Below are positions 1 through 32,929 of a DNA stretch of 33,177 nt, piece after piece (position 1 is the first letter of the stretch; each line of letters opens with the position of its first letter). This DNA comes from an uncultured bacterium. GTDB taxonomy: Bacteria; Fidelibacterota; Marinisomatia; Marinisomatales; UBA1611. The stretch spans positions 1 to 33,177 of the forward strand of contig CAZPIF010000001.1 of the NCBI GenBank assembly GCA_964586565.1, in the 5' to 3' direction. The notes below the pieces were generated by a model. That model searched no databases. It saw only the letters and a program-made list of their open reading frames with translations, and was not told the DNA's origin. The translations under genes and the position numbers were made by a program.

Positions 1-112
1 CTATTCTGTAATCTTATTTATCAGTTAGAACTTTTATCTTTTTTTAAACTAATTTATACATATGAATAATTTGAATTACATAAATAGTAACCAAAATTGA
101 GTGAAGTAAATA

Positions 113-697
113 TTGGAAAAATTACCACTATTCCCGTTAAATCTTGTCTTGCTTCCATTTGAACATCTGCCCTTACATATCTTTGAGCCCAGATACAAGC
201 TAATGATTAAAAATGCGATTGAACATAATAATCCCTTCGGAATAATTCTTAGTGAAGGAGAGGGAGTGTTCTCAAAAGGCGTAAAAGTTTGTGTTAAAGA
301 AGTTTTCAAAAAGTATTCGAACGGGGAATACGATATTCTTGTTGAAGGGGAGGAAGTATTTAAGGTTAAAGGTACTGAAATAGACGGGGACACCGTTATG
401 GGTGATGTTGAATTCCTACCTATACAAACAGGTATGGAGGGTCCTCAATTCCAAAAATTCCAGGAATCATATTTGAAGATACTACTAAAGTTTGGAGTTG
501 ATAAAGATTTTGAACTACACATGAAAAAGAAAATTTCATTTGAGTTTTTACAAGGGTTACAGCTACCACTTGTTCTCAAGAAAGAGATCATAAGCATTAA
601 CGATGAGGTCAATCGATTGGAATTTATCAAAAGTATTTTCAATAATATTTTAGAGGTTAATTCTAAAACTCCTAGTGGTAGTCTGCCGCAAGCCTAA
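113..697 (+). CDS. Stand-alone Lon protease N-terminal (substrate-binding) domain protein
   Basis: The N-terminus LPLFPLNLVLLPFEHLPLHIFEPRYKLM matches the LON N-domain signature (PLFPL..V.FP....L.IFEPRY). At 194 aa it has no AAA+ or protease domain. There is no in-frame ATG; TTG at 113 is the start. Confidence 0.75.
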   Translation: MEKLPLFPLNLVLLPFEHLPLHIFEPRYKLMIKNAIEHNNPFGIILSEGEGVFSKGVKVCVKEVFKKYSNGEYDILVEGEEVFKVKGTEIDGDTVMGDVEFLPIQTGMEGPQFQKFQESYLKILLKFGVDKDFELHMKKKISFEFLQGLQLPLVLKKEIISINDEVNRLEFIKSIFNNILEVNSKTPSGSLPQA

Positions 698-910: not shown

Positions 911-1162
911 ATGAAAAAACAAAGTCAGAATTATTGGAATGAAAATATTTCACTCATCATGAAATGTCTCTCCATTTGGTTTATTTCTTCATATGGTTTT
1001 AGCATTATTTTGGTTGACCATTTGAATGTCATAAAGATTGGTGGATATAAACTCGGCTTTTGGTTTGCACAACAAGGATCCATCTATGTATTTGTAGCTC
1101 TCATCTTTTATTATGCATTTAAAATGGGCGAGATTGATAAGAAATACCAGGCTAATGATTAA
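911..1162 (+). CDS. DUF4212-type small membrane subunit of a sodium:solute symporter
   Basis: 83-aa two-TM protein containing GFWFAQQGSIYVF, placed immediately upstream of an SSS-family permease. This is the classic DUF4212 + VC_2705-type symporter pairing. Confidence 0.8.
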   Translation: MKKQSQNYWNENISLIMKCLSIWFISSYGFSIILVDHLNVIKIGGYKLGFWFAQQGSIYVFVALIFYYAFKMGEIDKKYQAND

Positions 1163-1183
1163 TTTTATTTATTAAGATTTTTT

Positions 1184-2884
1184 ATGGATCTACAAGCACT
1201 TACTTTTTTAATTGTTGGTTTTACCTTTGCAGTCTATGTTGGGATCGCCTTTTGGGCAAGAGCAAATAACACTAACGAGTTTTACGTGGCAGGAGGTGAT
1301 ATACACCCAATTGCTAATGGTATGGCAACTGCTGCTGATTGGATGTCTGCAGCTTCATTCATTTCTATGGCTGGTTTGATTGCATTCTTTGGATATGGCG
1401 GGTCTGTTTTTCTAATGGGTTGGACAGGGGGATATGTGTTATTAGCTTTACTGCTAGCACCATACCTAAGAAAGCATGGGTCATTTACTGTGCCAGGATT
1501 TATTAGTGATCGTTATTATTCAAAGACAGCAAGGGTTGTCGCTGTTGTGTGCCTCATAATTGCATCTTTAACTTATGTTATTGGGCAAATGAAGGGAATT
1601 GGTGTTGCCTTTTCAAGATTTTTAGAAGTGGATTATGACCAGGGACTAATAATTGGAATGGCAATCGTATTTATTTATGCTGTGATGGGAGGTATGAAAG
1701 GAATAACATATACTCAAATAGCTCAATATATAATTATGATCATTGCATATACCATACCTGCAATTTTCATATCATTTATGTTAACGGGAAGTCTAATTCC
1801 TCAGGTTGGGCTTGGAGCGACAATGGAAGATGGAACTTTTCTATTGGACAAGTTAGATCAAATCATAACAGAACTTGGTTTTGAAGAGTATACCACAAAT
1901 AAACGTTTAAGCTTATTAAATATGTTTTTTTATACGTTATCATTAATGATAGGTACGGCAGGCCTGCCACATGTAATAATGAGATTTTTTACTGTTCCTT
2001 CTGTGAAAGCCGCTAGATCATCTGCTGGGTGGGCACTTGTTTTCATAGCAGTTTTATATACCACCGCTCCAGCTGTTGCAGCTATGGCTAGATTGAATCT
2101 TATATCTACTATAGATCAGCCAGAACAACAGCAGAATCTTGCATATGTTGATAGACCTTCCTGGTTTCGTAATTGGGAAAAAACGGGGCTACTAAAATTT
2201 GAAGATAAGAATAATGATGGTCTGATCCAATACACAGCAGGCGATGATAATGAAATGGTCAAAGTCGATAGAGATATAATGGTTTTAGCAAATCCCGAAA
2301 TTGCAAACCTTCCTAATTGGGTAATTGCTTTAGTCGCTGCGGGTGGACTTGCAGCTGCACTTTCCACTGCAGCAGGACTTTTACTCGCGATTTCATCTTC
2401 AATTTCTCGTGACCTATTAAAAGGTGTACTTAAACCTAATATTTCAGAAAAGAAGGAACTCTTAGCAAGCCGTATGGCAATGGCAATATCTATAGCAGTT
2501 GCAGGTTATTTTGGATTTAATCCTCCTGATTTTGCCGCAGGGACAGTAGCGCTAGCTTTTGGATTGGCTGCATCATCTATATTTCCAGCATTGATGATGG
2601 GTATATTCTCAAATAAGATGAATAAAGAAGGGGCAATAGCGGGTATGCTTGCAGGAATAAGTATTACACTATTATATGTTTTTCAGCACAAAGGAATAAT
2701 GTTCATTCAATCAACATCATTCTTAGGTGAAATGGAACAAAACTGGTTTTTTGGTATTGAGCCCAATGCCTTTGGGGCGATTGGGGCATTGGTTAATTTT
2801 TCTGTTGCTTATCTGGTATCAAAAAAATATTCAGATGTCCCATCTGAGGTAAAAGATATGATTCAAAGAATCAGAAGACCGTGA
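1184..2884 (+). CDS. Sodium:solute symporter family permease (cation/acetate ActP-like, VC_2705 subfamily)
   Basis: 566-aa polytopic membrane protein. SSS-family motifs are recognised by eye (FYVAGG, AADWMSAASFISMAGL, GLPHVIMRFFT). It ends in a TGA stop at 2882-2884. Confidence 0.9.
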   Translation: MDLQALTFLIVGFTFAVYVGIAFWARANNTNEFYVAGGDIHPIANGMATAADWMSAASFISMAGLIAFFGYGGSVFLMGWTGGYVLLALLLAPYLRKHGSFTVPGFISDRYYSKTARVVAVVCLIIASLTYVIGQMKGIGVAFSRFLEVDYDQGLIIGMAIVFIYAVMGGMKGITYTQIAQYIIMIIAYTIPAIFISFMLTGSLIPQVGLGATMEDGTFLLDKLDQIITELGFEEYTTNKRLSLLNMFFYTLSLMIGTAGLPHVIMRFFTVPSVKAARSSAGWALVFIAVLYTTAPAVAAMARLNLISTIDQPEQQQNLAYVDRPSWFRNWEKTGLLKFEDKNNDGLIQYTAGDDNEMVKVDRDIMVLANPEIANLPNWVIALVAAGGLAAALSTAAGLLLAISSSISRDLLKGVLKPNISEKKELLASRMAMAISIAVAGYFGFNPPDFAAGTVALAFGLAASSIFPALMMGIFSNKMNKEGAIAGMLAGISITLLYVFQHKGIMFIQSTSFLGEMEQNWFFGIEPNAFGAIGALVNFSVAYLVSKKYSDVPSEVKDMIQRIRRP

Positions 2885-11493: not shown

Positions 11494-11659
11494 AATATTC
11501 ATGATAACACCTTCAGAATTCTAGTTTGAGTAATAAAAGATTTTAACATAATTATAATGGTGAAATTATCTAAATTTGTTCAAGTATTATTTTTTAACAA
11601 TTACATTTAATAAGAAAAATGGAATTCATAATCACCAAATGTATACATATCAATATTTT

Positions 11660-14600
11660 ATGAAGATAAAATTATTATTAATAATTCTTTTTATTTCGGG
11701 GTTAAATGCTCAGTCCTTTGGACAAAATAAAGTTCAATATATTGATTTTGATTGGAATTATATACAAACGCCTCATTTTGATATTTATTACTATAATGAC
11801 CAAATAAAACTAGCTGAATTTGCTGCAGAGGTTGCTGAGGCATCTTATGAGCAAATATCTATTCATTTAAGATGGGACTTAAAAAGACGTGTTTCAATCA
11901 TGGTTTATAATTCTCATAATGAGTTTCAACAAACAAACATTGTACAAACTTATATGCGTGAAGGTGTAGGAGGTGTTACAGAATTATTTAAAAATAGAGT
12001 TGTTTTTCCATTTGAGGGAAACTACGAACAGTTTCGCCATGTCATTCACCATGAATTAGTTCATGCTATGATCAATGATATGGTTTATGGCGGTAGAATG
12101 CAAAATGTTGTGTCAAGTAGAACAAAAATTCGAGTCCCCATATGGTCTAATGAAGGTCTTGCTGAATATTTGAGCTCGGATTGGGATACAAAAGCTGATA
12201 TGATAATGAGAGATATATCTGTTCATGAACGCATGCCGTCAGTAAAAGAATTGAATTACTTTATGGCCTATAAAGGCGGACAATCTCTTTGGCGTTTCAT
12301 ATCAGGTAAATATGGAAGGGAAAAGATTGGAGATATTTTTAGATCAATGAAGAGGACTCAAAACGATCAAAAAGGTTATGAAAGCGCGCTTGGTATGAAT
12401 TATGATGATTTAACAAAGCAATGGCATAAATACCTAAAAAAAGAGTATTGGCCTGATGTTAAAGACCGCGACCCCATTGAGGACATATCCGAAAGATTAA
12501 CAGATCATAAAAAATCCAATAATTTTTATAATGTAAGTCCATCTATTTCTCCAGATGGTAGTATGGTGGCAGTTTTAACAGATGAAAATGGTTATTTTGA
12601 TATACACATATTGGATGCTATGACTGGTAAGAGAATAAAGAAGTTGGTAAAAGGCAATCGCACCGTTGATTTTGAAGAATTAAAATGGCTTCAGCCCGGT
12701 ATATCTTGGTCGCCTAACAGTAAAAAAATCGTTTTAGCAGCAAAAGCGGGTAAGGGAGATGTATTACATATTATTGATGTAGACACTAGAAAGAGTAAAA
12801 AATATGAGATTGGCATGGATGCAGTTTTTTCAGCATCATGGAATCCTAAAAAAAATGAAATTGCATTCATTGGACAGTCTGGAATCTCTAGCGATGTTTA
12901 TATATTTAATTTAGACGATGAATCCATAGGAAAAATAACAAACGATATATTTTCTGATGCTTATCCATCTTGGAATAATGAAGGAACAGAAATTGTGTTC
13001 GTTTCTGATAGAGGAGATAATGTAAAAGGGGATTATGAAAATTCTATGTTCAACCATGATTATGGCCAAACAGACATATATATAGTTAACAGCAATAGCA
13101 AAGAAATAAGAAGAGTTACAAATACTAAACACAATGAATCTCATCCTGTTTGGGCAAATACTAGTAATTCTTTATTTTATACTGCTGATTATAATGGTGT
13201 GTGGAATCTTTTTGTACACCCACTAGACGATTTTTCTAAATCTGAAGCACACCTATTGCAGCCATATCCAATCACAAATGTCCTAACCGGTCTTCAGCAA
13301 CCAACAATAAGCAAAGATGATAAAACTTTAATTTTTGCTGGTTATTCAGGAATAGGTTGGGATTTATATAGTTTGGCTAATCCTCTAAAATTAAAAAAGA
13401 AATCAGTAGAGCCCACTCAATTCATTCTCAACAAGGAAGAGGAGTCTGTAAATAATATAATTACAGATCTAAGGAAACATAAGTCAATCGTAAAAGATGA
13501 TAGAATTGAAGAGGGAAACTATTCTAACTGGATTTTTGCTGGTGGATATCAGCATTATAATTCAGTAATTGATGATGCTGATACCGCAGAGGAACTTATT
13601 TCTTTAGACTCTGCTAAAGTGGATGGTCAGTACATTCCAAAAACATATAAAACAAGATTCACTCTAGATTTAGTTAGTGGTAATCTCCAGATAAGCAATG
13701 TATTTGGCACAAGCGGAATGACATACTTTGCTTTCAGTGATATATTGGGTGATCACCAGATAGCTTTTGGGACTGAAATGGTGTTAACTCTTGAAAACAG
13801 TGATTACTTCTTCCAATATGGCTATTTAAAAAATAAGATGGATTATTATTTTACTGCATTTCAAAATGCAAACTTTTTTTCGGTTGATTATTGGTCAATT
13901 GGTCGCTTAAGGCACTACGGATTACAAGGTACAGTATCGCAACCATTTAGTCGTTTTCAAAGGCTTGATTATGGTTTTTCATGGCATAATATAAATTATT
14001 CTATATTAGAGCAGGGTCTAAATAATTTTGGTCAAGCTGAATACTCACAAACATATTCGTCAACGTATTCCACCATTCTACCAAGACTAAGTTGGGTATA
14101 TGATAATTCAGTTTTTGGTTTTACTGGTCCAGTAGATGGGTTCAGACAAAATACAACAATTACTGCTAGTCCTGGTTATGGTTCTAATAATTTAGAATTT
14201 CAAACAGTAAAATCTGATATAAGAAAATACTGGAGAATTGGGAAAAATTATACATTTGCTGTTCGTGCATTTTTAGGTAAGAGTCTTGGAAATGATAAAC
14301 AAAATTTCTTCCTTGGGGGGGTACCTTACCTCTTAGGAGGAGGTGGTGAAACAAATGGGGTAAAAGATAATAGTAATTTTAGGGAAGTAATATTAGATAC
14401 TTCAAACGCAACGCTTATTCATGATGTCTATTTTACAGAATATGCTTGGCCTCTAAGAGGTGCGCGTTTTGGAGAAAGGTTTGGTAATAATGCTTCTTTA
14501 TTTAATTTAGAAATCAGGTTTCCATTTATAAATTATCTTGCTCTGGGTTTTCCTTTAAAAATGATTTTTGGCAATATTCGGGGCCATGCCTTTATGGATA

Positions 14601-14824
14601 TTGGTGCTACCTGGAATAGTCCTAAAGAGTTTAATACAAGAACTTGGCCAGATAGGTATGGATCAAATGATCTAGGGAATTATTCTCCATGGGTTACAAC
14701 AGCTGGACTTGGGACAAAGATAAATCTAGGATATTTTTTATTAAAAATAGAAATGGCCTGGGATAAAAATCCAAATGGATACTCCAAACCTCAATGGTAT
14801 TTTTCTTTGGGTCCTGACTGGTAA
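11660..14824 (+). CDS. Giant outer-membrane fusion protein: HExxH (MA-clan-like) domain + TolB-like PD40 beta-propeller + Omp85/surface-antigen-type beta-barrel
   Basis: Start moved to ATG 11660 (MKIKLLLIILFISGLNAQ signal peptide). HHELVH lies at 12047-12064 (the HExxH core is 12050-12064). There are at least 6 PD40-like repeats (SPSISPDGSMVAV, SWSPNSKKIVLAA, SWNPKKNEIAFIG, YPSWNNEGTEIVFVSDR, HPVWANTSNSLFYTAD, QPTISKDDKTLIFAG). The C-terminal half is beta-rich and ends ...WYFSLGPDW (aromatic terminal residue). Confidence 0.8.
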   Translation: MKIKLLLIILFISGLNAQSFGQNKVQYIDFDWNYIQTPHFDIYYYNDQIKLAEFAAEVAEASYEQISIHLRWDLKRRVSIMVYNSHNEFQQTNIVQTYMREGVGGVTELFKNRVVFPFEGNYEQFRHVIHHELVHAMINDMVYGGRMQNVVSSRTKIRVPIWSNEGLAEYLSSDWDTKADMIMRDISVHERMPSVKELNYFMAYKGGQSLWRFISGKYGREKIGDIFRSMKRTQNDQKGYESALGMNYDDLTKQWHKYLKKEYWPDVKDRDPIEDISERLTDHKKSNNFYNVSPSISPDGSMVAVLTDENGYFDIHILDAMTGKRIKKLVKGNRTVDFEELKWLQPGISWSPNSKKIVLAAKAGKGDVLHIIDVDTRKSKKYEIGMDAVFSASWNPKKNEIAFIGQSGISSDVYIFNLDDESIGKITNDIFSDAYPSWNNEGTEIVFVSDRGDNVKGDYENSMFNHDYGQTDIYIVNSNSKEIRRVTNTKHNESHPVWANTSNSLFYTADYNGVWNLFVHPLDDFSKSEAHLLQPYPITNVLTGLQQPTISKDDKTLIFAGYSGIGWDLYSLANPLKLKKKSVEPTQFILNKEEESVNNIITDLRKHKSIVKDDRIEEGNYSNWIFAGGYQHYNSVIDDADTAEELISLDSAKVDGQYIPKTYKTRFTLDLVSGNLQISNVFGTSGMTYFAFSDILGDHQIAFGTEMVLTLENSDYFFQYGYLKNKMDYYFTAFQNANFFSVDYWSIGRLRHYGLQGTVSQPFSRFQRLDYGFSWHNINYSILEQGLNNFGQAEYSQTYSSTYSTILPRLSWVYDNSVFGFTGPVDGFRQNTTITASPGYGSNNLEFQTVKSDIRKYWRIGKNYTFAVRAFLGKSLGNDKQNFFLGGVPYLLGGGGETNGVKDNSNFREVILDTSNATLIHDVYFTEYAWPLRGARFGERFGNNASLFNLEIRFPFINYLALGFPLKMIFGNIRGHAFMDIGATWNSPKEFNTRTWPDRYGSNDLGNYSPWVTTAGLGTKINLGYFLLKIEMAWDKNPNGYSKPQWYFSLGPDW

Positions 14825-17360: not shown

Positions 17361-17821
17361 TGTCTCAAATTATTTCTAGAGTAATAGATGCTTACGTATT
17401 TAGAAAAACGAATGATGGTATCAATTTTCTACTATTAAAACGCGCAGAGACTAAAATCTATGAACACCTCTGGCAAGGAGTTGCGGGTAAGATAGAACCA
17501 GGTGAAACTGCTACAGAGGCCGCGGTTCGTGAATTAAAAGAAGAGACAGGCTTAGAACCTTTTAGAATGTTTGTAGCAGATCATGTTAGTAGGTTTTACG
17601 AGACTCATGGAGATAGAATTAATCTAGTTCCTGTTTTTGGGATTGAGGTTCGCGAGGAAAAAGTTATACTTTCAAAAGAGCATTGTGATTTTAAGTGGGT
17701 TGAATATGATAAAGCATTTAAAACTCTTGTTTGGAATGGCCAAAAAGAAGGAATTTCAGCAGTCTACAGTATGCTATTTTCAAAAGATGACCGTATAAAA
17801 TGGTCAAAGGTTTTATTATAA
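17360..17821 (+). CDS. NUDIX hydrolase
   Basis: Nudix box GKIEPGETATEAAVRELKEETGL. TAATG stop/start overlap with tgt. Confidence 0.85.
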   Translation: MSQIISRVIDAYVFRKTNDGINFLLLKRAETKIYEHLWQGVAGKIEPGETATEAAVRELKEETGLEPFRMFVADHVSRFYETHGDRINLVPVFGIEVREEKVILSKEHCDFKWVEYDKAFKTLVWNGQKEGISAVYSMLFSKDDRIKWSKVLL

Positions 17822-17840
17822 TATTGAATTGGAGATATTA

Positions 17841-18296
17841 ATGTTATCAGAAGGCAATAAAGCACCAGATTTTCAGTTGTATGACCAAAATGGTAATCCA
17901 GTAACCTTAGGCGATTTTAAAGGAAAAAAAGTACTAGTTTGGTTTTTTCCTAAAGCTAGTACTCCAGGTTGAACAATTGAAGGTCAAGTACTCCGGGATG
18001 AGTACAAAAATTTTCAAGAGAAAAATACAGAAATAATTGGAATAAGTGGAGACTCAAGCAAAGCTCAAAAAAACTTTTGTGATAAACAGAATTTCCCCTT
18101 TTTATTGCTCTCCGATCCAGAAAAAATAACTATAAAAGCTTACGGCGCATTTGGTCCAAAAAAATTCATGGGTAAAGAGTACGAGGGTATCTATCGTGTC
18201 TCTTATTTGATTGATGAAGATGGCGTAATTGAGAAGGTTTATAAGAAGGTTAAACCAAAAGAACATGCTGCACAAGTTCTATCAAACATAGTTTAA
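17841..18296 (+). CDS. bcp: BCP/PrxQ-type peroxiredoxin with in-frame TGA (17970-17972) at the peroxidatic-Cys position: candidate selenocysteine-containing peroxiredoxin (151 aa)
   Basis: Manual translation from ATG 17841 (GGAG at 17831-17834) gives MLSEGNKAPDFQLYDQNGNPVTLGDFKGKKVLVWFFPKASTPG[TGA]TIEGQVLRDEY...LLLSDPEKITIKAYGAF.... It continues in frame into the track ORF 18105..18296. The stretch is collinear with E. coli Bcp ...[23 protein letters not shown]..., so the TGA replaces exactly the catalytic Cys codon. Confidence 0.8.
17977..18017 (+). promoter_or_regulatory. Candidate bacterial SECIS-like stem-loop downstream of the in-frame UGA
   Basis: Upper stem GUACUC (17988-17993) pairs with GAGUAC (18000-18005), enclosing the 6-nt loop CGGGAU. 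Lower stem UUGAA (17977-17981) pairs with UUCAA (18013-18017) across an internal loop. The apical loop begins 21 nt after the UGA and has G at its second position. All of this was read by hand. Confidence 0.55.
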
Positions 18297-19216
18297 AAAG
18301 ATATATTCAAGCTATTACCGATAAAAGATTTCTCATTAATTGAAGCATCCAGATATCCTAACATTACAGAATGTCCTTTGATTTTTATAGAGTCAGAACC
18401 AAGGCTATATTCCGTTAAGTGTATAGGTTTTTTACCGATTGATAGTGCGGCAGAGTTTTCTATACATATAGCAATATCATTTTCATTGAACATATCTATC
18501 TTTTTTAAATCTAATCTAATGTTATAGTCATTCCCTGATAATCCAATAGTTAAATCTGGTTCTATACTATCATAGACGCATCCGCAGTATATTGGAAGTA
18601 TGGCTTTAAACACCACCCAGTATGTTGTACCGTATAAAACATCACAGTGAATGTGAGTTCGGCTTTTTATTCCAATCGCTTTTTGTATTCCACTAGCATT
18701 TATTAATAGATTGTAGTGAGACAACCTGATACCATGGCTCTTCTCAAAAGACAGTACTGCTTCATCATAAAGTAAAGGTTTGTATTTTGGCTCAAAACTT
18801 TTTGAATATTTTTTTATTTTATTAAATAGATTTGTGGTAGAAGTGATTAGGTCTTTGGCATCAGATTTTTTCTTAATTTCGTCAAAATTTATTTTTGCAG
18901 GTAAAACTACAGAGGCACCTATATTCCATATCCCATATAACAGAATCTCTGATTGAGGATATTTAAGATTTGGCATAATTATTCTATCTTTTGGTTTTAA
19001 ACCTAAGCTTTCTAACCAATTACTTGTTTGTTGGACATAGCAAAAAAATCTTCGATTGGTAATATTTTTTTCCTGTATAATAAGCTGATCGGAAAATTTA
19101 ATAGTTTGTCCTTCAACAAGGGATCTCATTGAAGGATATGGTGTCATATATTCGATAGGTTCAACATTTCCTATACACTGCGCATTATATATCTTTTTTT
19201 CTAGCTTTGTATTCAC
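18293..19216 (-). CDS. Truncated/degenerate adenylate-forming (AMP-binding, acyl-CoA-synthetase-like) family protein
   Basis: GLKPKDRIIMPNLKYPQSEILLYGIWNIGASVVLP resembles the N-terminal ANL-family block. DEAVLSFEKSHGIRLSHYNL sits where D.A.I.YTSGTTG.PKGV.LSH.NL is expected, so the P-loop is lost. IKIKGHSVMLGYLD resembles GE..v.G..vM.GY. At 307 aa it lacks the C-terminal subdomain. The GTG start is uncertain (in-frame ATGs at codons 24 and 30). Confidence 0.55.
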   Translation of the reverse strand: MNTKLEKKIYNAQCIGNVEPIEYMTPYPSMRSLVEGQTIKFSDQLIIQEKNITNRRFFCYVQQTSNWLESLGLKPKDRIIMPNLKYPQSEILLYGIWNIGASVVLPAKINFDEIKKKSDAKDLITSTTNLFNKIKKYSKSFEPKYKPLLYDEAVLSFEKSHGIRLSHYNLLINASGIQKAIGIKSRTHIHCDVLYGTTYWVVFKAILPIYCGCVYDSIEPDLTIGLSGNDYNIRLDLKKIDMFNENDIAICIENSAALSIGKKPIHLTEYSLGSDSIKIKGHSVMLGYLDASINEKSFIGNSLNISF

Positions 19217-19288: not shown

Positions 19289-19909
19289 TTATTTGGGTTT
19301 TATTTTTCGAATAATTTCAAAATTATCATTTGGTCTTGTATACCAATTACCAGCGAGTCTACCAATTGGTTCAAGTTTATCTAGTCGAATATGACCATTT
19401 TCATAAATAGAATCGTCAATATGAAAGAGTACTACCGTTCCAATTACAATAAAACCACTTCCCGGATTTTTATCACCTATCTCAACGATTTGGTTTAGTT
19501 CGCATTCAAAACTTACTTTGGATTCTTTCAATCTTGGAGGCAAAACCTTTTTGGATGTTTGAGCATTTAGTCCAGATATATCAAATTCATCTACATTTGG
19601 ATCAAAATCAGTAGCGCACATCACCATTTGTTCTACGATACTTTCAGAAACAATATTTACTACAAATTGTTTATTATCTCTTATATTGACTAGTGTGTCT
19701 TTTTCTTTACCATCCCATCCACGTCTAGCTGGAGCAAACATAATAGTTGGAGGCTTTGAGCATACTCCATTAAAGTAAGAAAATGGTGCAATATTATTTT
19801 TCCCATCTTTTGATATAGTTGATACAAACGCGATTGGACGAGGAACTATAGACCCGATCATCAATTTATGTACATCAGTAAAGGACAAATCGCCAGGGTC
19901 AAATTTCAT
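19289..19909 (-). CDS. Flavin reductase-like (FMN-binding split-barrel) domain protein
   Basis: Recognised as the flavin_reduct/DIM6-NTAB family by eye (LMIGSIVPRPIAFVST...GKNNIAPFSYFNGV...PP). ATGA start/stop overlap with hmgA. Confidence 0.8.
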   Translation of the reverse strand: MKFDPGDLSFTDVHKLMIGSIVPRPIAFVSTISKDGKNNIAPFSYFNGVCSKPPTIMFAPARRGWDGKEKDTLVNIRDNKQFVVNIVSESIVEQMVMCATDFDPNVDEFDISGLNAQTSKKVLPPRLKESKVSFECELNQIVEIGDKNPGSGFIVIGTVVLFHIDDSIYENGHIRLDKLEPIGRLAGNWYTRPNDNFEIIRKIKPK

Positions 19910-21054
19910 TTAATAAACCATGAGAATGGATAATTTTCATCAGAGATCTGTATTGCTGACTTTGTAAGATTCAATTTTTCAAATGTATCAATCATAACCG
20001 CAAATTCATTTGTTTCTTTTTTGCCTATGGATTCTTCTATTTTACCAGGCTGTGGCCCATGTGGAAGCCCCATCGGGTGATAGGTTAAAGATTCCTTTTT
20101 AATTCCTTTTCGACTCATAAACTCGCCATCAACATAATAAATTACTTCATCTGAATCAACATTGCTGTGGGCGTATGGAGCAGGTATTGAATCGGGGTGA
20201 TAGTCAAATAATCGAGGAACAAAAGAGCAGATAACGAAGCCTTTGCTTTGAAAGGTTTGATGTACTGGCGGAGGCTGGTGAATTTTTCCTGTTATTGGCA
20301 TAAAATTATTTATATTGAATGAATATGGAAAGTAATAACCGTCCCATCCTAAAACATCAAATGGGTGGTGTTGATATGTATATGTTTGAAAACCGTTAGA
20401 TAGCTTGACTATAACATCGATTGATTTATTTTCGATTGGTGAAACAAGTTTTGGTGTGGTAATGTCACGCTCAGAAAATGGTGCATGCTCTAATAGCTGT
20501 CCAAAATTATTTCTATAACGTTCAGGTGTTTCAATTGGAGCTTTGGATTCAATAAAAAGTATTTTTAATTTATTTTTAACTACCATTTTCCAAATTACAC
20601 CTCTAGGTATTACAATATAATCACCTTCATTTATATCAATATCACCAAAATTTGATTGAAAATATCCACTCCCTTCATGTATAAAAAGAATTTCATCAGC
20701 GTATCCATTGCGATAAAGTAGATCCATTGAATGATTAACATGTGCTTTTGATATAATGAGATCATTATTATAAAAAAGTGGTACTCTTGCAGAAATACAA
20801 TCACCTTTGGATTTTATTTTTGATGAATCAAGATGCAAAGGTTTATGTTTATCATTTACTGGAAGTAATTCATAATTATCTATTTCACCTATAGTTTTGA
20901 TAGAGGTCGGAGGGTTTATATGATAAATATTAGAGTAGATACTACTGAACCCTCCACGGCTAACTAACTCTTCCCAAATTAGTTCACCTTTTTTACTTCT
21001 AAACTGAGTGTGTTTTTTAAAAGGTATTTCACCTTGTTTTTGATAAAATGGCAT
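19906..21054 (-). CDS. hmgA: Homogentisate 1,2-dioxygenase
   Basis: 382 aa. The N-terminus YQKQGEIPFKKHTQF and the cupin core with a conserved His/Glu region (HSNVDSDEVIYYVDGEFMSR...YHPMGLPHGP) are typical of short bacterial HGDs. Its context with hppD and FAH supports the call. TGA stop. Confidence 0.88.
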   Translation of the reverse strand: MPFYQKQGEIPFKKHTQFRSKKGELIWEELVSRGGFSSIYSNIYHINPPTSIKTIGEIDNYELLPVNDKHKPLHLDSSKIKSKGDCISARVPLFYNNDLIISKAHVNHSMDLLYRNGYADEILFIHEGSGYFQSNFGDIDINEGDYIVIPRGVIWKMVVKNKLKILFIESKAPIETPERYRNNFGQLLEHAPFSERDITTPKLVSPIENKSIDVIVKLSNGFQTYTYQHHPFDVLGWDGYYFPYSFNINNFMPITGKIHQPPPVHQTFQSKGFVICSFVPRLFDYHPDSIPAPYAHSNVDSDEVIYYVDGEFMSRKGIKKESLTYHPMGLPHGPQPGKIEESIGKKETNEFAVMIDTFEKLNLTKSAIQISDENYPFSWFIK

Positions 21055-21060
21055 GGTTGA

Positions 21061-22047
21061 TTATACTATTTTATTTTCTAAAACACCGAGATGTTCTACT
21101 TCAAGTCTGATAATATCTCCTTTTTTAATCCACCCATTAGTATTCTCAGGTCTTAGTTCGAGAATACAACCTGTACCAACAGTTCCTGAGCCCAAATAAT
21201 CACCTGATTTTAGTTCTGTATTCATTGAAGCGCGTTCTATCATTTTTTCAAATGGATGATATAAATCATTTGTATTACCATCGGAAATTAATTCACCGTT
21301 TATATGGCATGTCATGCGAAGGTGCAATTTATTATTTTTATCCATTGAGTTTTCAAGTTCATCTGGAGTTACCATATACGGGCCAAAGCTGGTTGCAAAA
21401 TCTTTTCCCTTTGCTGGTCCAAGACTCATTGCCATCTCCTCTCTCTGAAGATCTCTTGCTGACCAATCATTACATATGGTATAACCTGCTATATAATCGC
21501 CTGCATTTGCAGCAGAAATATTAGAACCACCATTTGCAATTATTATTGCAAACTCAAGTTCAAAATCTAATTCTTTTGTTCCAGTTGGATATGAAATATT
21601 TGATTGATGTCCAAAAATAGCAACTGGATTAGAAAAGTAAAATATAGGGATTTTAAACCAATCTGGATGCATTTCAAGACCACGAAGTTTCCTGGCAGAA
21701 CGAACATGCTGTTCAAAAGCATAAAAGTCTCTAAAAGACTGAGGGTTTGGTACTGGAGCCATTAGCTCTATCTCTGATTCTAGTTTAGCAATATGTTTTC
21801 CGTTTTCAGTCTTTTCATAAAGATTATCATTAGATACAGAAGCTTCTAGTCTCTTTATCTTTTCAAAATTTAATTTCCAGTTATGAAGTGCCAATTTTAA
21901 CGATGATGGAATTTCTATTGCAGAAGCATCCCCATGTTTTTCATCTAACCATTTTGCACAGTTCTTGATATCAATAATATGATTAAACTTTTTAAAACCA
22001 AACCTTGGTGTTTGTTCTCCTTTATATTTGTAGGTGGCGAGTTTCAT
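21061..22047 (-). CDS. Fumarylacetoacetate hydrolase (FAH) family protein, short COG0179-type
   Basis: FAH-fold C-terminal block (ELEFAIII...DYIAGYTICNDWSARDLQ...GPAKGKDFATSFGPY...SGDYLGSGTVG). It is positioned between hppD and hmgA. At 328 aa it is shorter than canonical ~420-430-aa fumarylacetoacetases. Confidence 0.85.
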   Translation of the reverse strand: MKLATYKYKGEQTPRFGFKKFNHIIDIKNCAKWLDEKHGDASAIEIPSSLKLALHNWKLNFEKIKRLEASVSNDNLYEKTENGKHIAKLESEIELMAPVPNPQSFRDFYAFEQHVRSARKLRGLEMHPDWFKIPIFYFSNPVAIFGHQSNISYPTGTKELDFELEFAIIIANGGSNISAANAGDYIAGYTICNDWSARDLQREEMAMSLGPAKGKDFATSFGPYMVTPDELENSMDKNNKLHLRMTCHINGELISDGNTNDLYHPFEKMIERASMNTELKSGDYLGSGTVGTGCILELRPENTNGWIKKGDIIRLEVEHLGVLENKIV

Positions 22048-23130
22048 TTAAAGATTCCCTCTTTTTTCTTGTTCTCTTTCTATTGATTGAAATAGTGCTT
22101 TGAAATTACCTTTTCCAAAACTGTTTGACCCCTTTCTTTGTATTATTTCAAAAAAAAGCGTAGGTCTATCTTGCAATGGTTTAGTAAATATTTGCAGCAT
22201 ATAACCATTTTCATCATTATCTACCAGGATACCCAATTCTTTTAATTTATCGATATCTTCGTTTATTTCTCCAACTCTACTAGTGAGGTTATCGTAATAG
22301 GAATCTGGAGTTGGTAGAAATTCAACTCCATTCTTTCTCATTATTTCAACAGAAGTAATGATATCCTTTGTTGACAAAGCTAAGTGCTGAATACCTGCGG
22401 CTGAATAATAATCAATAAACTCTTGTATTTGGGATTTTTTTATACCATCAGCAGGTTCATTTATGGGCATTTTTATTATTTCATTTTCATTTGCCATAAC
22501 TATCGAACGCAGGGAGGAGTATTCTGTAGTAATATCATTATCATCAACTGTCCAAAATCGATGCCATCCGAAAACTTTTTCATAAAAATCACAGACAGGT
22601 TGCATCTCGCCCTCTGCCTGATTTCCAACTACATGGTCTATATGAATTAAGCCAATTAATTCTGAATCAAGATTTGATTTTTTCCCCTTATAGCCAGGTA
22701 AAAAAGTCCCGTTATAATTATTACGTTCGATAAATGTGTGAACTGTATCTCCAAATGTTTGAATTGAAGAAACGATTGCTTCACCATCCTCATCTTTGAT
22801 TTGAGTTGGTTTTTTTGCGCTTTTAGCACCACGTTCCAAAGATAATTTCCAAGCTTCTTCAGCATCATTGACCGTAAAAGCAACATCTTTTATTCCGTCA
22901 CCATGTTTGTCAATATGGCTACCTATTTTTGTATTCATTTCTAGTGGTGATGTAACAACTAAAAAAATCTTACCTTGATTGAGAACATAACTAACCCTAT
23001 CTCTAGAACCGGTTTCAAGACCACGATAGGCAATAGTTTTGAATCCCATTGTTTTATTATAAAAGTATGCGGTCTGTTTGGCATTGCCAACATATAGTTC
23101 ACAATGGTTAAAACCTTTTATTGAATACAT
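22048..23130 (-). CDS. hppD: 4-hydroxyphenylpyruvate dioxygenase
   Basis: Two VOC/glyoxalase-fold halves (FNHCELYVGNAKQTAYFY...; IDHVVGN...GIQHLAL...) and the C-terminal FFEIIQRKG....FGKGNFKALFESIE-type tail, which is diagnostic of HPPD. Confidence 0.95.
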   Translation of the reverse strand: MYSIKGFNHCELYVGNAKQTAYFYNKTMGFKTIAYRGLETGSRDRVSYVLNQGKIFLVVTSPLEMNTKIGSHIDKHGDGIKDVAFTVNDAEEAWKLSLERGAKSAKKPTQIKDEDGEAIVSSIQTFGDTVHTFIERNNYNGTFLPGYKGKKSNLDSELIGLIHIDHVVGNQAEGEMQPVCDFYEKVFGWHRFWTVDDNDITTEYSSLRSIVMANENEIIKMPINEPADGIKKSQIQEFIDYYSAAGIQHLALSTKDIITSVEIMRKNGVEFLPTPDSYYDNLTSRVGEINEDIDKLKELGILVDNDENGYMLQIFTKPLQDRPTLFFEIIQRKGSNSFGKGNFKALFQSIEREQEKRGNL

Positions 23131-23137
23131 CGATTTT

Positions 23138-24241
23138 TCACAATATTTTTTTTAGAGTTTTTATGAAGGTTTTATTTTCATAATCTGTTCCTACAGATAT
23201 TCGAATACAATTTGGCCACCCAAATGAAGAAAGTTCTCTTACTATAATACCATATTTTAGTAGAGTATTTGAGATTCGGGAAGCTATTTCTTCAAATTCC
23301 CAAATAGTTGTAACAAAATTGGTGGCTGAGGATATATGCTTGATACCTAATTTATCAAATTCTTCAATAAAATATTGTATTCCTTTTTTGTTTAAGTTAA
23401 CTGTTTCGATTAAAAATTTGTTATCATCTAGAGCTGCCACTCCTGCAACCTGCGCTAGCAGTGAAGGTTCAAAAGGAACTTTAACTTTTAATAAATTTGT
23501 TATAAGGTCTTCGTGAGCAAAACCATATCCAATTCTCACACCACCTAGACCATATGCTTTAGAAAAGCTCCGCAGAGTAATTACATTATCGTATCTATAG
23601 TGCATTGAATCAGGATAATCAGAAAGACTGTTTGCAAATTCAAAGTATGCTTCATCTAATATAATTAATACTCTTTCTGGAATATATGAATAAAATTCAT
23701 CAAACTCTTTTTTTGTAATATATGTACCCATTGGATTATCAGGATTAGCTATATAGATTATTTTTGTATAATCTGTTATCTTATTGGCCATTTTTTCTAA
23801 GTCATATCGATGTTTTTTCATAGGAACCCAGTGAGTCCTTCGACCTGAAGAATTCGCTAAAACGCGAAAACCAATAAAAGAATTTTTTGCACTAATCAAC
23901 TCATCATCGCTTAGAAGAAAAGTACGCATAATTGTTGACATTATACCCTCTGAACCAGAGCCTAAAACAACATTATCAATTTTTAAATTATATTTTTTAG
24001 CTAGCTTACTTCGAAGATAAAAACCAGATGCATCTGGATAACGATGAACATTTTTCATTGAATCTATAATTGCTTCAATAGCCTTAGGGGAAGCTCCTCT
24101 GGGGTTTTCGTTTGAAGCTAGTTTAATAATATTTTTTATTCCAGATTCTCTCTGGGCTTCATCTATTGGCTTTCCAGGTATGTAATTTTTTAACTTCTTA
24201 ATATATGGAGGTACTAAAGGCATATATATATCTAATTGCAT
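23138..24241 (-). CDS. Class-II PLP aminotransferase (HisC-like; probable aromatic/tyrosine aminotransferase by context)
   Basis: PLP-lysine block RSFSKAYGLGGVRIGYG and NPNNP-like ANPDNPMGT. It is the first gene of the hppD-FAH-hmgA operon. TGA stop. Confidence 0.85.
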   Translation of the reverse strand: MQLDIYMPLVPPYIKKLKNYIPGKPIDEAQRESGIKNIIKLASNENPRGASPKAIEAIIDSMKNVHRYPDASGFYLRSKLAKKYNLKIDNVVLGSGSEGIMSTIMRTFLLSDDELISAKNSFIGFRVLANSSGRRTHWVPMKKHRYDLEKMANKITDYTKIIYIANPDNPMGTYITKKEFDEFYSYIPERVLIILDEAYFEFANSLSDYPDSMHYRYDNVITLRSFSKAYGLGGVRIGYGFAHEDLITNLLKVKVPFEPSLLAQVAGVAALDDNKFLIETVNLNKKGIQYFIEEFDKLGIKHISSATNFVTTIWEFEEIASRISNTLLKYGIIVRELSSFGWPNCIRISVGTDYENKTFIKTLKKIL

Positions 24242-28079: not shown

Positions 28080-30155
28080 ATGAAACAATTTTCATCATCA
28101 GATATAAGGAACTTCGCAGTTGTAGGGCATGGTGCCTCAGGAAAAACTTGCCTAACAGAAGCAATGCTTAAGCTTGGCAAAGAGATTAACCGCTTAGGAA
28201 TAATAGAAGATGGGTCCACGACTTCAGATTATCACTCTGGAGAGAAAGCAAGACAAATTTCTATCCACAATACACCTCTTCATATGACATGGAAAGACAA
28301 AAAATTTAATATTATTGATACTCCAGGCTATTCTGATTTTATAGGCGAAGCGTTAGGAGCACTAAATGTAGTTGATATGGCTGTTATTGCCATTCATGCA
28401 GTAAATGGAGTAGAAGTTTGCACAGAGACAATGTGGAGTCATGCCTCTAAGTTGGGCATTCCTAAAATGTTGGTGGTCAACGGATTAGACAGAGAGCATA
28501 CAAAATTTGAAGAAATTCTTGCTCAAGCTCGAAGACGATTTGGAAACAATATTTTCCCAATGCAACTACCTGTAAATGAGGGTCCTGGTTATAATCAGAA
28601 TGTTGATGTATTGAGGACAGAATTGATTTCCTATGAGAATAATGGTTCTGGGAAAATGACTGAGGGTGAATTACCAGATGAATTAAAAGAGAAAGTGAAG
28701 ACTCTCCATGAAGAATTAATTGAATATGTAGCTGAATCAGATGATACCCTGTTAGAAAAATTTTTTGAGAAAGGTAACCTTACTGAGGAGGAGATGAGGA
28801 ATGGAATCCACAGAGCTATTCAAGACCAGATATTTGTGCCTTTATTTTGTACTTCTTCTACCACTAATATAGGAGTTGCACGCGTTTGTGATTTTATTTC
28901 AAAATATGGTTCTTCTCCTGATGATAGAAAAACAGTTACTGCTCATGATGAGCAAGGTAATGATGTAGATGTTTCGCTTGATGGTAATGATACTGTACTA
29001 CAAATTTTTAAAACTATGTCTGAAGCACATATTGGTGAATTTTCTTTTTTCAGAGTTTATTCTGGTAAAGTAAAAACCGGGAAAGATTATTACAACACAA
29101 ATCGGAATATTAATGAGAGGTTTGGGCAGATGTTTTTACTAAATGGTAAAAACAGGACACAAGTTGATCAGTTATTTGCAGGTGATATTGGTGGGGTAGT
29201 AAAGTTAAAAGATACACACACTGGCAATACACTTTCTTCTGGTAAGCATCTTAAACTTCCTGAACTATCACTCCCTAATCCCAATATACATGCAGCAATT
29301 AGACCAACAGCTAAGGGCGATGAAGAAAAACTTGCTATTGGCCTTGCAACCCTTCATGAGGAAGACAGCACTTTTGTTTACAGAGTGGATTCAGAAGTAA
29401 ATCAAACAATTATTTCAGGGCAAGGTGAATTACATTTAACCGTTTCGACAGAACGATTGAAAAGAAGATTTGGAATTGATATTCAGCTTGAGGAACCAAA
29501 GATCCCATTTAGAGAAACAATAACAAAAAAGGCCGCATCCAAATATCGACATAAAAAACAGTCAGGTGGGGCAGGACAATTTGCTGAAGTATGGATGAGA
29601 ATTGAGCCAAGACCAAAAGGAGAGGGTATTGACTTTACACATTCATTGGTGGGGCAGAATGTTGACCGTGTATTTGTTCCATCTGTTGAAAAAGGTGTAA
29701 AAACTGCATGTGCTGAGGGTATTTTAGCTGGATCAAATGTTGTTGATATCAAAGTAGATTTCTATGATGGGAAGATGCACCCAGTTGATTCAAAAGACAT
29801 AGCATTCCAAACAGCAGGAAAACATGCATTTAGAGAAGCTTTTCTTAGTGCGCAACCTTGTTTGTTAGAACCGATTATGGATATTGAGGTAAAGATTCCT
29901 GAGGAATACATGGGAGATATCATGGGAGATATTTCAGGGAAACGGGGAAAGATAATGGGTATGGAGGCAGATGGTACTTTTCAGATAATTAAGGCAAAAG
30001 TGCCACAGGCTGAGTTATATCATTATGCTACAACAGTACGTTCATTAACGGGTGGTAGAGGTATTCATTCTGAATCGCTAAGCCACTATGAAAAAATGCC
30101 AAAAGATTATGAACAAAAAGTAATTCAAAAAAGGCAAAAAGTTGAAGATGAATAA
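28080..30155 (+). CDS. Elongation factor G paralogue (EF-G2-like translational GTPase)
   Basis: Five-domain EF-G length (691 aa). G1 is GHGASGKT, G3 is DTPGYSDF. G4 is NGLD instead of NKxD. Switch-I is RQISI instead of RGITI. EF-G domain IV/V blocks are present (SGGAGQFA, VDSKDIAFQTAG). It is not in an rpsL-rpsG-fusA-tuf context. Confidence 0.88.
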   Translation: MKQFSSSDIRNFAVVGHGASGKTCLTEAMLKLGKEINRLGIIEDGSTTSDYHSGEKARQISIHNTPLHMTWKDKKFNIIDTPGYSDFIGEALGALNVVDMAVIAIHAVNGVEVCTETMWSHASKLGIPKMLVVNGLDREHTKFEEILAQARRRFGNNIFPMQLPVNEGPGYNQNVDVLRTELISYENNGSGKMTEGELPDELKEKVKTLHEELIEYVAESDDTLLEKFFEKGNLTEEEMRNGIHRAIQDQIFVPLFCTSSTTNIGVARVCDFISKYGSSPDDRKTVTAHDEQGNDVDVSLDGNDTVLQIFKTMSEAHIGEFSFFRVYSGKVKTGKDYYNTNRNINERFGQMFLLNGKNRTQVDQLFAGDIGGVVKLKDTHTGNTLSSGKHLKLPELSLPNPNIHAAIRPTAKGDEEKLAIGLATLHEEDSTFVYRVDSEVNQTIISGQGELHLTVSTERLKRRFGIDIQLEEPKIPFRETITKKAASKYRHKKQSGGAGQFAEVWMRIEPRPKGEGIDFTHSLVGQNVDRVFVPSVEKGVKTACAEGILAGSNVVDIKVDFYDGKMHPVDSKDIAFQTAGKHAFREAFLSAQPCLLEPIMDIEVKIPEEYMGDIMGDISGKRGKIMGMEADGTFQIIKAKVPQAELYHYATTVRSLTGGRGIHSESLSHYEKMPKDYEQKVIQKRQKVEDE

Positions 30156-30943: not shown

Positions 30944-32791
30944 TTGGAAACTTCAATTCAAACTTCATCATTTTTTTGGGTAATAATCTTTGGATATTTT
31001 ACTCTAGTTTTAGGCTTTGGTTCTTTCTTTGCTAGATATAATAAAACCACGCAAGACTTTTTTTTCAGTGGAAGACGATTTTCGTGGTGGTTAGTAACTA
31101 TGAGTATAGTTGCAACTGGTGTTGGGAGTCATAGTTTTTTAAAATATTCAGCAAAAGCCTATGAGCATGGTTTTTCATCTACTATGACTTACATGAATGA
31201 TTGGTTTTTTATGCCACTATTTCTTTTTGGATGGTTACCGATTGTCTACTACACAAAAATACGATCAATACCTGATTATTTTGAAAGGCGTTTTAATCCA
31301 GGTGTAAGAGTATTAGCTACTATCGCAATTCTTGGTTATATGATTGGATATATTGCAATTGGTTTTCTCACTATGGGGAAAACTTTAGAGCCTCTTTTAG
31401 GATTAGATTTATATACAATTATTTTTATTGTTGCCATTATTTCAGGAGTTTATATCACCTTTGGTGGTCAGACTGCAGTCATTTTTACGGATCTTGCTCA
31501 GGGTTTTATTTTAATTTTTGCAGGAATAATAGTTTTTCTGATGGGCATTAACTATGTAGGTGGTTTTTCAATATTTTGGAATGCTCTTTCTCCAGAGTTT
31601 AAGTTGCCACTTGCTCATTTTAATCACCCCGCAAATTTCAATTTTGTAGGTATCTTTTGGCAAGATGGTGTAGCTGGATCTGTTGGGTTTTTATTTATGA
31701 ATCAAGGTCTGATAATGAGATTTATGGCTTGCAAATCGGTACACGAAGGTCGTAAGGCTGCAGCATTTAATGTCATTGTTCTCCTGCCTATTTCAACAAT
31801 AGTTGTTTCTAATGCAGGCTGGGTGGGGAAAGCTATAAGTGTCGTTACTCCTGAAGCTTGGAACACGGCAACAAAACTTGATCATGTTTTTACACAGGTT
31901 GCCTATTTAATAACAGGTAGCGAAGTCGTTTTTGCTTTTGTAATTGCAGCTGTTGCAGCTGCACTAATGAGTACAGTTGATACTCTTATCAATGCTGTTG
32001 CTGCAGTGGTTATAAATGATGTATACAGGCCTCTTGTTAAGGATAAAGATGATAAACATTATTTAAAAGTTGCTATGATTGTTTCTGCAGGAGCAACAGC
32101 TATTGGTGCAGTTACTACTATATTTTTTGATAATTTTCCTACTCTTTATGAGGCTCATGGTTTTTTCCATAGCACAATGACACCTCCATTAGTTGTGGCT
32201 ATTTTTCTTGGAATCTTTTGGAAGCGATATAATACTCCTGCCGCTATTGCGACTTTTTTAGGAGGTGCAGTATTGATGGCAATAGGTGGAAAGTATCCTG
32301 AAATTTTCATATCACCATTTGACCATGGTATTGAATTCAATCCCGAAAGACCTTACTCTTATATAAGAGCTTTATATAATACATTAGTCTGCTCTGCTTC
32401 TGGAGTAATTGTTGGATTTTTAACCTCGCCACCAAATGAAGAAAAAACAGATGGCCTTACTGTGTGGTCTTTAAATAAAGCCAGAGAAATATTTAAAGGA
32501 GGTGCACCAAATGATCGTCCAGGAGAATCAATAAAATTACAATGGGTTGTTAAAGAGAGCTTAGATGATACTGTAGAAATTTCTATCAATGATATGGAAG
32601 TAATGTCTGCAGATGTAGGAGATATGGTTTATCTTTCTGATGAGAGAAAGTGGTTAGGTGGTTTAAAATCGTTTCACTCAGTTTTTGGCGAACCACATAA
32701 TGAAGATGGGAAAGTATATATTAGTCAGAACCATGTCGATTCTGCAATGCTTGATAATAAAAATAAACTACGGGCTGAGAAGGAATTGTAA
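30944..32791 (+). CDS. Sodium:solute symporter family permease with about 119-aa C-terminal soluble extension
   Basis: SSS-like polytopic protein (FFSGRRFSWW, TDLAQG, long TM series). TTG start. The hydrophilic tail from about 32434 has no TM segments. Confidence 0.88.
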   Translation: METSIQTSSFFWVIIFGYFTLVLGFGSFFARYNKTTQDFFFSGRRFSWWLVTMSIVATGVGSHSFLKYSAKAYEHGFSSTMTYMNDWFFMPLFLFGWLPIVYYTKIRSIPDYFERRFNPGVRVLATIAILGYMIGYIAIGFLTMGKTLEPLLGLDLYTIIFIVAIISGVYITFGGQTAVIFTDLAQGFILIFAGIIVFLMGINYVGGFSIFWNALSPEFKLPLAHFNHPANFNFVGIFWQDGVAGSVGFLFMNQGLIMRFMACKSVHEGRKAAAFNVIVLLPISTIVVSNAGWVGKAISVVTPEAWNTATKLDHVFTQVAYLITGSEVVFAFVIAAVAAALMSTVDTLINAVAAVVINDVYRPLVKDKDDKHYLKVAMIVSAGATAIGAVTTIFFDNFPTLYEAHGFFHSTMTPPLVVAIFLGIFWKRYNTPAAIATFLGGAVLMAIGGKYPEIFISPFDHGIEFNPERPYSYIRALYNTLVCSASGVIVGFLTSPPNEEKTDGLTVWSLNKAREIFKGGAPNDRPGESIKLQWVVKESLDDTVEISINDMEVMSADVGDMVYLSDERKWLGGLKSFHSVFGEPHNEDGKVYISQNHVDSAMLDNKNKLRAEKEL

Positions 32792-32850: not shown

Positions 32851-32923
32851 TCCGGAGTAGCTCAGTTGGTAGAGCAGGTGGCTGTTAACCACTTTGTCGG
32901 GGGTTCGAGTCCCTCCTCCGGAG
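32851..32923 (+). tRNA. tRNA-Asn (anticodon GTT)
   Basis: Hand-folded cloverleaf: acceptor TCCGGAG/CTCCGGA, D-arm GCTC-AGTTGGTA-GAGC, anticodon arm GGTGG-CTGTTAA-CCACT, variable TTGTC, T-arm GGGGG-TTCGAGT-CCCTC, discriminator G. The 3' CCA is not encoded (the gene is followed by CAT). Confidence 0.93.
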
Positions 32924-32929
32924 CATTTT

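Follow-up and report, generated by a model that had tools for sequence, protein, structure and literature searches.

An in-frame UGA at the peroxidatic position of a Bcp/PrxQ-type peroxiredoxin: a probable selenoprotein of a Marinimicrobia (SAR406)-type bacterium

Introduction

The first 33,177 nucleotides of contig CAZPIF010000001.1 (GenBank assembly GCA_964586565.1), here called the window, carry a peroxiredoxin gene that is interrupted by a single in-frame TGA. The locus raises the question whether this codon ends a damaged gene or is decoded, possibly as selenocysteine (Sec), at the position where related enzymes hold their catalytic cysteine. A sequence-only reading, made from the letters of the window without database searches, had proposed the latter and had pointed to Sec-containing members of the family in computational selenoproteome surveys. 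The literature bears this out. Peroxiredoxins with Sec in a TxxU motif (Sec-Prx) have been known since 2005 and are among the most abundant marine selenoprotein families, with 43 genes in the Sargasso Sea and 253 in the Global Ocean Sampling (GOS) data (Zhang, Fomenko & Gladyshev 2005, PMC1088965; Zhang & Gladyshev 2008, PMC2398784). In addition, 91 genes are known from 78 sequenced bacteria, the family is inferred to have arisen at least five times from Cys forms, and a review of 2026 treats it as established, with the motif PxxxTxxU. The window gene would therefore be an unannotated member of a known family. With a probability of roughly 0.92 we regard it as a genuine Sec-containing Bcp/PrxQ peroxiredoxin of a Marinimicrobia (SAR406)-type bacterium.

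Reading frame and genetic code of the window

Translation from the ATG at 17841, behind a GGAG Shine-Dalgarno motif, gives 151 codons with one internal stop, the TGA at 17970-17972, which lies within FFPKASTPG-TGA-TIEGQ (the coordinates of all features are collected in Table 1). The start codon lies 20 nucleotides (nt) beyond the stop of the upstream Nudix hydrolase gene, which ends at 17821, and (A)GGAG is found at the same distance before the ATG in all orthologues. Past the TGA the frame stays open for 107 codons, for which a chance probability of about 2.3e-4 is calculated from the base composition. In the mechanical list of open reading frames (ORFs) only a C-terminal tail of 63 amino acids (aa) at 18105-18296 appears. 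Start, length, interruption and truncated annotation are all as the sequence-only reading had described them. In a scan of the window for TGA codons with long open frames on both sides, the peroxiredoxin was accompanied only by a TGA at 443-445 on the minus strand, which was rejected as an artefact: its frame (76-642, minus strand) is of low complexity and antisense to a gene for a LON substrate-binding domain (113-697, plus strand). No TGA-interrupted ORF besides the peroxiredoxin was found in the window and the related loci.

The G+C content of the window is 33 %, and its 29 ORFs end with TAA (19), TGA (5) or TAG (5). The three TGA codons that had been named as genuine stops (2882-2884, 19906-19908 and 23138-23140) are real and belong to these five. 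Trp is encoded by TGG in nearly all ORFs, and the gene lengths agree with those called on related contigs. As TGA ends 5 of the 29 ORFs and TGG stands for Trp, the genetic code is standard in the window and the TGA at codon 44 is a local event.

Conservation of the TGA in related loci

Scans of genome and metagenome collections yielded 160 peroxiredoxin loci. The aligned codon 44 is TGT or TGC in 141 of them, mostly Flavobacteriaceae with 52-58 % identity, so that the interruption falls exactly into the Cys column, as had been claimed. Of the 19 loci that most resemble the window (55-76 % identity), 18 have TGA and one has TGC; a first motif search had found 16 TGA codons, and the final count was reached by inspection of three missed loci. 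All 19 syntenic orthologues are collinear without gaps, comprise 150-152 codons, possess a Shine-Dalgarno motif and contain no other stop or frameshift. Most of those with enough flanking sequence share the gene order of the window, which comprises at least the upstream Nudix gene in 16 of them, and Tgt-Nudix-Prx is the conserved order; in one of them (L082) the shared synteny reaches about 20 kb. A syntenic TGA locus is found in the single-cell genome 'Candidatus Marinimicrobia bacterium AG-359-L04', which indicates that the window comes from a Marinimicrobia (SAR406)-type bacterium.

Sixteen contigs encode a Tgt protein identical to that of the window; the six longest were assembled independently from separate samples, of Tara Oceans and other origin. 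The TGA is present on all six, the gene differs at 0-2 nucleotides, and on each the gene caller gave a 43-aa 'Redoxin' fragment. Another form of error is met in protein catalogues. In the 120 best database hits residue 44 is Cys in 78, Trp in 40 and Ser in one, and the Trp is carried by full-length 151-aa proteins with 75-99 % identity. On the four Trp-bearing contigs that were checked (L161-L163 and L165; 92-99 % protein identity) the DNA reads TGA, and under translation table 11 the gene does not yield the catalogued protein. The Trp entries stem from short AT-rich contigs on which TGA was translated by table 4; the wrong catalogue forms comprise proteins P0001-P0016, P0019-P0038 and others, and loci L161-L163, L165 and L169-L174. 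The predicted mis-annotation is thus present in public records, either as a 43-aa fragment or as a Trp at codon 44.

The Ser entry (P0017) belongs to a single syntenic contig (L164:6378-6833; ENA ERZ27252101 k141_3091143) with TCA at codon 44. Its downstream hairpin (see below) is fully intact, with -7.1 kcal/mol, equal to that of the window. An enzyme with Ser as its peroxidatic residue is expected to be inactive, and as only one contig shows the TCA, it could reflect either a misassembly or genuine variation.

Selection on both sides of the TGA

Between the TGA-bearing orthologues the proportion of synonymous differences (pS) is saturated, with values of 0.48-0.85, and the proportion of nonsynonymous differences (pN) downstream of the TGA is 0.07-0.22. 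Where the ratio of nonsynonymous to synonymous substitution rates (dN/dS) could be computed it amounts to 0.10-0.16 downstream and 0.06-0.10 upstream. Saturated pS together with low pN shows that the 107 codons past the TGA are translated. There is no decay behind the TGA, and the purifying selection resembles that upstream, in agreement with the proposal of a local recoding and not a strain-specific nonsense mutation.

Family, fold and redox residues

For family searches position 44 of the window protein was entered as Cys. The protein matches Pfam AhpC-TSA (PF00578) with E = 2e-35, as well as Redoxin, and passes the NCBIfam equivalog model of Bcp (NF006960) over its full length with 177 bits against a cut-off of 140; the best PDB matches are BCP/PrxQ structures (E 2e-30 to 8e-24). 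The assignment to BCP/PrxQ made from the sequence alone is thereby confirmed. Arg119 is invariant in the orthologue alignment and presumably has the active-site role known from established peroxiredoxin enzymology.

The sole Cys of the protein is Cys80 (KNFCDKQ), 36 residues past the TGA, and the residue at +5 is Gln49; both had been noticed beforehand, as had the similarity of this spacing to Cys48/Cys84 of the Xanthomonas enzyme, and Cys80 indeed aligns with Cys84 on helix alpha3 of X. campestris BCP/PrxQ, for which PDB entries titled as C48S and C84S mutants exist. Among the 120 closest database homologues, a Cys at +36 is present in all 119 proteins in which the motif could be located. With a Cys at about +36 and none at +5, the window protein has, as judged from the alignment, the features of an atypical 2-Cys PrxQ of the alpha3 type. 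A Sec-form orthologue (L116:147-596) has Ser at the resolving position 80 (KKFSDKH), which suggests that some Sec members may function without a resolving Cys and without an intramolecular Se-S bond.

The evidence on the fold, which is of the thioredoxin-type peroxiredoxin kind, comes from an AlphaFold model of P0018, a Cys orthologue with 76 % identity that stands in for the window protein. In this model (predicted local distance difference test, pLDDT, 93) helix 42-53 holds position 44 in its first turn, Cys80 is part of helix 73-83, and Foldseek aligns it with BCP/PrxQ structures at template modelling (TM) scores of 0.90-0.95.

A conserved hairpin downstream of the TGA

Published descriptions of bacterial Sec insertion sequence (SECIS) elements give a hairpin that directly follows the UGA and has a G in its small apical loop. 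The hairpin behind the TGA of the window matches this description and is regarded as a putative SECIS. The minimum free energy of the window sequence (17977-18017) is -11.3 to -11.8 kcal/mol. In an alignment of 16 distinct TGA genes, made from the TGA onward, the 6-bp (base pair) stem (columns 19-24/31-36) is paired in 99 % of the cells and shows compensatory double changes at four of the six pairs, and RNAalifold predicts exactly this helix. A conserved, covarying hairpin, for which a search had been suggested by the sequence-only reading, is hence found. The loop is CGGGAU or CGUGAU (CGKGAU) in all sequences but one, which has CGUGAC. An optional lower stem was rejected as a conserved feature: 75 % of its cells are paired, with covariation at one of eight pairs (a single sequence).

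The encoded residues co-vary with the stem (VL-RD-EY, GF-RD-EL/EF, KL-RD-EF), and the choice among synonymous codons shows a constraint on the RNA. Codon 51 ends in C in all 16 genes, with TTC in 11/11 and CTC in 5/5, in contrast to a background in the window genes of 14.5 % TTC among Phe codons and 3.8 % CTC among Leu codons; at the other conserved Phe positions of this gene TTT prevails. For Arg52, which lies in the loop, 16/16 genes use CGG or CGT against a background of 18 %, while the invariant Arg119 uses all six codons.

In a first comparison all six pairs were formed in 18 of 19 TGA genes and in 0 of 142 Cys genes, a control that is weaker than it looks, being dominated by distant Flavobacteriaceae. 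The argument for a SECIS therefore rests on covariation and on the constraint on synonymous codons.

Table 1 Features of the peroxiredoxin locus (window positions unless a locus is named)
Feature	Position	Strand	Remarks
Shine-Dalgarno GGAG	17831..17834	+	Read directly; 6-nt spacer before ATG at 17841
Complete Bcp/PrxQ-type peroxiredoxin gene	17841..18296	+	151 codons, codon 44 is UGA
Active-site motif P37-K-A-S-T41-P-G-U44 (PxxxTxxU)	17949..17972	+	Counterpart in X. campestris BCP: PKDSTPGC
In-frame UGA, proposed Sec44, peroxidatic residue	17970..17972	+	TGA conserved; Cys column in distant homologues
Optional lower stem	17977..18017	+	17977-17984/18010-18017; present in window sequence and nearest relatives
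Proposed SECIS core	17988..18005	+	Stem 17988-17993/18000-18005, loop CGGGAU 17994-17999, 15 nt after UGA
Cys80 codon TGT, proposed resolving Cys, helix alpha3	18078..18080	+	Aligns with Cys of DNFCAKQ in X. campestris BCP/PrxQ
Arg119 codon CGT, conserved peroxiredoxin active-site Arg	18195..18197	+	Aligns with GIERSTF of BCP structures
True stop TAA	18294..18296	+	4-nt overlap with end of convergent 307-aa gene (18293-19216, -)
Weak hairpins in Cys orthologues	L176:10130-10185, L177:10130-10185, L178:554-609, L175:143-198, L083:4521-4576		AU/GU-rich pairs

Proposed decoding and catalytic cycle

In the mechanism that we infer, the UGA at codon 44 would be recoded by the hairpin 15 nt downstream, which as a bacterial SECIS would recruit SelB-GTP-Sec-tRNA(Sec) and so beat release factor 2. 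The resulting Sec44, at the start of helix alpha2 and beside Arg119, would reduce H2O2 or organic hydroperoxides and thereby be converted to a selenenic acid. After local unfolding, Cys80 on helix alpha3 would attack the selenenic acid and form an intramolecular selenenyl-sulfide, and the Se-S bond between Sec44 and Cys80 would be reduced by thioredoxin. The alignment with BCP/PrxQ and the placement of both residues in the model make such a Sec44/Cys80 cycle likely, on the pattern of the family mechanism.

Counter-evidence and alternative explanations

A number of results weigh against decoding as Sec. The hairpin is short, with only 6 conserved bp, and as a single sequence that of the window is no more stable than its shuffles (z = -1.37). 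Scanned against Rfam at the gathering threshold, the window showed no SECIS family, and with the limit relaxed to E <= 10 the region 17900-18100 gave only chance matches to small nucleolar and small nuclear RNAs. Furthermore, the five nearest Cys orthologues (L176, L177, L178, L175 and L083) keep weak pairs, six in three of them and five in two, so that the pairing potential partly follows the clade and the peptide and not strictly the TGA; the energies of these hairpins are -2.9 to +0.2 kcal/mol, with -2.2 to -2.9 in the closest, compared with -3.6 to -7.1 (mean -5.1) in the TGA genes. As for the decoding machinery, a search for tRNA-Sec in the window and 19 related loci found none, tblastn with SelA, SelB and SelD of E. 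coli gave no hits in the window or in the fetched loci, which total about 2 Mb, and Pfam and NCBIfam scans of the window ORFs detected no sel genes.

A 691-aa GTPase (28080-30155) was considered as SelB and rejected, as it is EF-G-like by Pfam and NCBIfam. Some GOS Prx genes reportedly have a SelW-like neighbour; the peroxiredoxin gene of the window has none. The five Cys orthologues with a weak hairpin lie in the same synteny, two of them on long-read contigs of 369-383 kb, and two of the five retain the rare CGT codon for Arg. To judge from their sequences, the weak hairpins look like relics of recent Sec/Cys switching, in one direction or the other. No dedicated study was found on selenoproteins of Marinimicrobia, Marinisomatota or SAR406, only table entries (Peng et al. 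2016): under 'all Sec-utilizing organisms' appear two SAR406 single-cell genomes, credited with 1 and 5 selenoproteins, and three others possess SelD and no other selenium-trait genes.

Four explanations other than Sec have to be weighed against these data. A pseudogene, in which a Cys codon was changed to a nonsense codon and the product is dead or cut to 43 residues, would need a single change from TGT or TGC, would suit the gene callers with their 43-aa product on long contigs and 63-aa C-terminal ORF, and would explain why no Sec machinery was seen in the window and the fetched loci. Against this, the TGA is kept in 18/19 orthologues despite saturated synonymous sites, no orthologue has an extra stop or a frameshift, dN/dS remains at about 0.1 downstream as upstream, and Shine-Dalgarno motif, start, stop and length are all conserved, which all but rules out a dead gene. 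Six independently assembled contigs from different samples with TGA and 0-2 differences, and four more with 92-99 % protein identity, speak against a sequencing or assembly error; one base would suffice to turn a true TGT, TGC or TGG into TGA, and the related contig L164 has TCA at codon 44, and still the chance of such an error is close to negligible. An organism-wide variant code, with TGA read as Trp (table 4) or Gly (table 25), might be suspected in AT-rich DNA (33 % GC) for which public callers used table 4 on short contigs and obtained proteins with 'W'. It is exceedingly improbable, as 5/29 window ORFs end at a TGA abutting the next gene, with lengths that agree with related contigs, nearly every ORF uses TGG for Trp, no other gene needs read-through of TGA, and peroxiredoxin chemistry does not admit Trp or Gly as the peroxidatic residue.

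More thought is due to the possibility that read-through of the UGA inserts a residue other than Sec, by a near-cognate tRNA-Trp or tRNA-Cys or by a non-canonical route, with the hairpin only stimulating read-through. The three SAR406 single-cell genomes with SelD and no other selenium-trait genes (2016 survey) would agree with this, as would a minimal hairpin that matches no curated SECIS model. However, the orphan SelD is most simply explained by incomplete assemblies, and other SAR406 single-cell genomes are listed as Sec-utilising. The codon coincides exactly with the column of the catalytic Cys, a hallmark of Sec/Cys pairs, and a Trp there would kill the enzyme; simple leaky decoding yields little product and should hardly hold a housekeeping antioxidant gene at a dN/dS of about 0.1; and TxxU peroxiredoxins are an accepted selenoprotein family. 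Read-through of this kind is accordingly unlikely. A more specific version, by which SAR406 genomes with the conserved UGA would have an orphan SelD only, without SelA, SelB and tRNA-Sec, and the 6-bp hairpin would recode in a non-canonical way, appears just as doubtful. It is more likely than this orphan-SelD version that Marinimicrobia account for a large part of the 'Prx' selenoproteins of ocean surveys. A Sec-containing peroxiredoxin thus remains the preferred explanation of the window gene.

Implications

The current understanding of selenoproteins is unchanged by the window gene. What is new is modest: the gene is placed by taxon and synteny in Marinimicrobia, its resolving Cys is of alpha3 type, the proposed SECIS is minimal and covarying, and the scale of the mis-annotation in public catalogues becomes visible. 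Gene callers turn such genes into 43-residue fragments on long contigs and give them a spurious catalytic Trp (table 4) on short AT-rich ones, and the Trp errors in catalogues (40 of the 120 closest entries) can mislead both functional inference and inference of the genetic code. Placing a member of one of the most abundant marine selenoprotein families in Marinimicrobia (SAR406) bears on the question which organisms create the selenium demand of the ocean. Moreover, the clade brings together Sec forms, Cys forms whose hairpins are weakened and a single Ser/TCA variant, a compact natural series in which Sec/Cys exchange and the decay of SECIS elements can be studied. If Sec/Cys switching has recurred in Marinimicrobia and left relic hairpins behind, it might track selenium or oxygen regimes.

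Neighbouring genes

The convergent 307-aa gene (18293-19216, minus strand) has no Pfam or NCBIfam match and is kept beside the peroxiredoxin in most related loci. A conserved cluster (19289-24241, minus strand), syntenic across Marinimicrobia loci, encodes a flavin reductase, an HgmA_N-like dioxygenase (a weak match to homogentisate 1,2-dioxygenase), a protein of the fumarylacetoacetate-hydrolase family, a 4-hydroxyphenylpyruvate dioxygenase and a HisC-type aminotransferase; by these similarities it looks like a homogentisate-type pathway of aromatic amino-acid catabolism. Upstream of RadA-Tgt-Nudix-Prx the clade conserves a gene (11576-14824, plus strand) for a 1082-aa protein with Peptidase_MA_2, Tricorn-like and TolB/PD40 beta-propeller regions. 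At 911-2884 (plus strand) a small DUF4212 protein is encoded directly upstream of a sodium:solute symporter (SSF), and a second SSF symporter (30944-32791, plus strand) is found towards the window's end, shortly ahead of a tRNA-Asn (32851-32924).

Comparison with known systems

PrxU of Eubacterium acidaminophilum is an experimentally characterised Sec-peroxiredoxin and shares Sec at the peroxidatic site. It represents a different peroxiredoxin subfamily: an assignment of the window protein to the PrxU type was rejected, as it reaches 46.8 bits against the NF040737 cut-off of 270 and has 151 residues, compared with 233 positions of the PrxU model. The SECIS of E. coli fdhF is likewise a hairpin within the coding sequence soon after the UGA, with a G in a small apical loop, and its distance from UGA to loop is of the same order as the approximately 21 nt of the window. 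The window hairpin differs in having only 6 conserved bp, no conserved bulged U and an unrelated sequence.

The equivalog model that the window protein passes over its full length is that of E. coli Bcp, a thioredoxin-dependent thiol peroxidase. In the E. coli enzyme the peroxidatic residue is Cys45 and the resolving one Cys50, at +5; in the window protein, by contrast, +5 is Gln and the resolving Cys is placed on alpha3. Closer in this respect is X. campestris BCP/PrxQ (PDB 3GKK/3GKM/3GKN and the 5IIZ series), an atypical 2-Cys peroxiredoxin with Cys48 as peroxidatic and Cys84 on alpha3 as resolving residue. It has the same subfamily and fold (phmmer E = 8e-24, about 35 % identity; Foldseek TM scores of 0.85-0.90 against the model of P0018), C48 aligns with U44 and C84 with C80, both proteins have the 36-residue spacing, and neither has a Cys at +5. 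With Sec in place of the peroxidatic Cys, a selenenyl-sulfide would replace the disulfide in the window protein.

There is no essential difference between the window gene and the marine Sec-Prx family (PMC1088965; PMC2398784), with which it shares COG1225/pfam00578, the TxxU motif with peroxidatic Sec, the origin from marine plankton, a bacterial-type SECIS just after the UGA and many Cys homologues. The marine surveys reported the family without assignment to a taxon, whereas the window gene is placed in a genome of Marinimicrobia (SAR406) type with Tgt-Nudix-Prx synteny.

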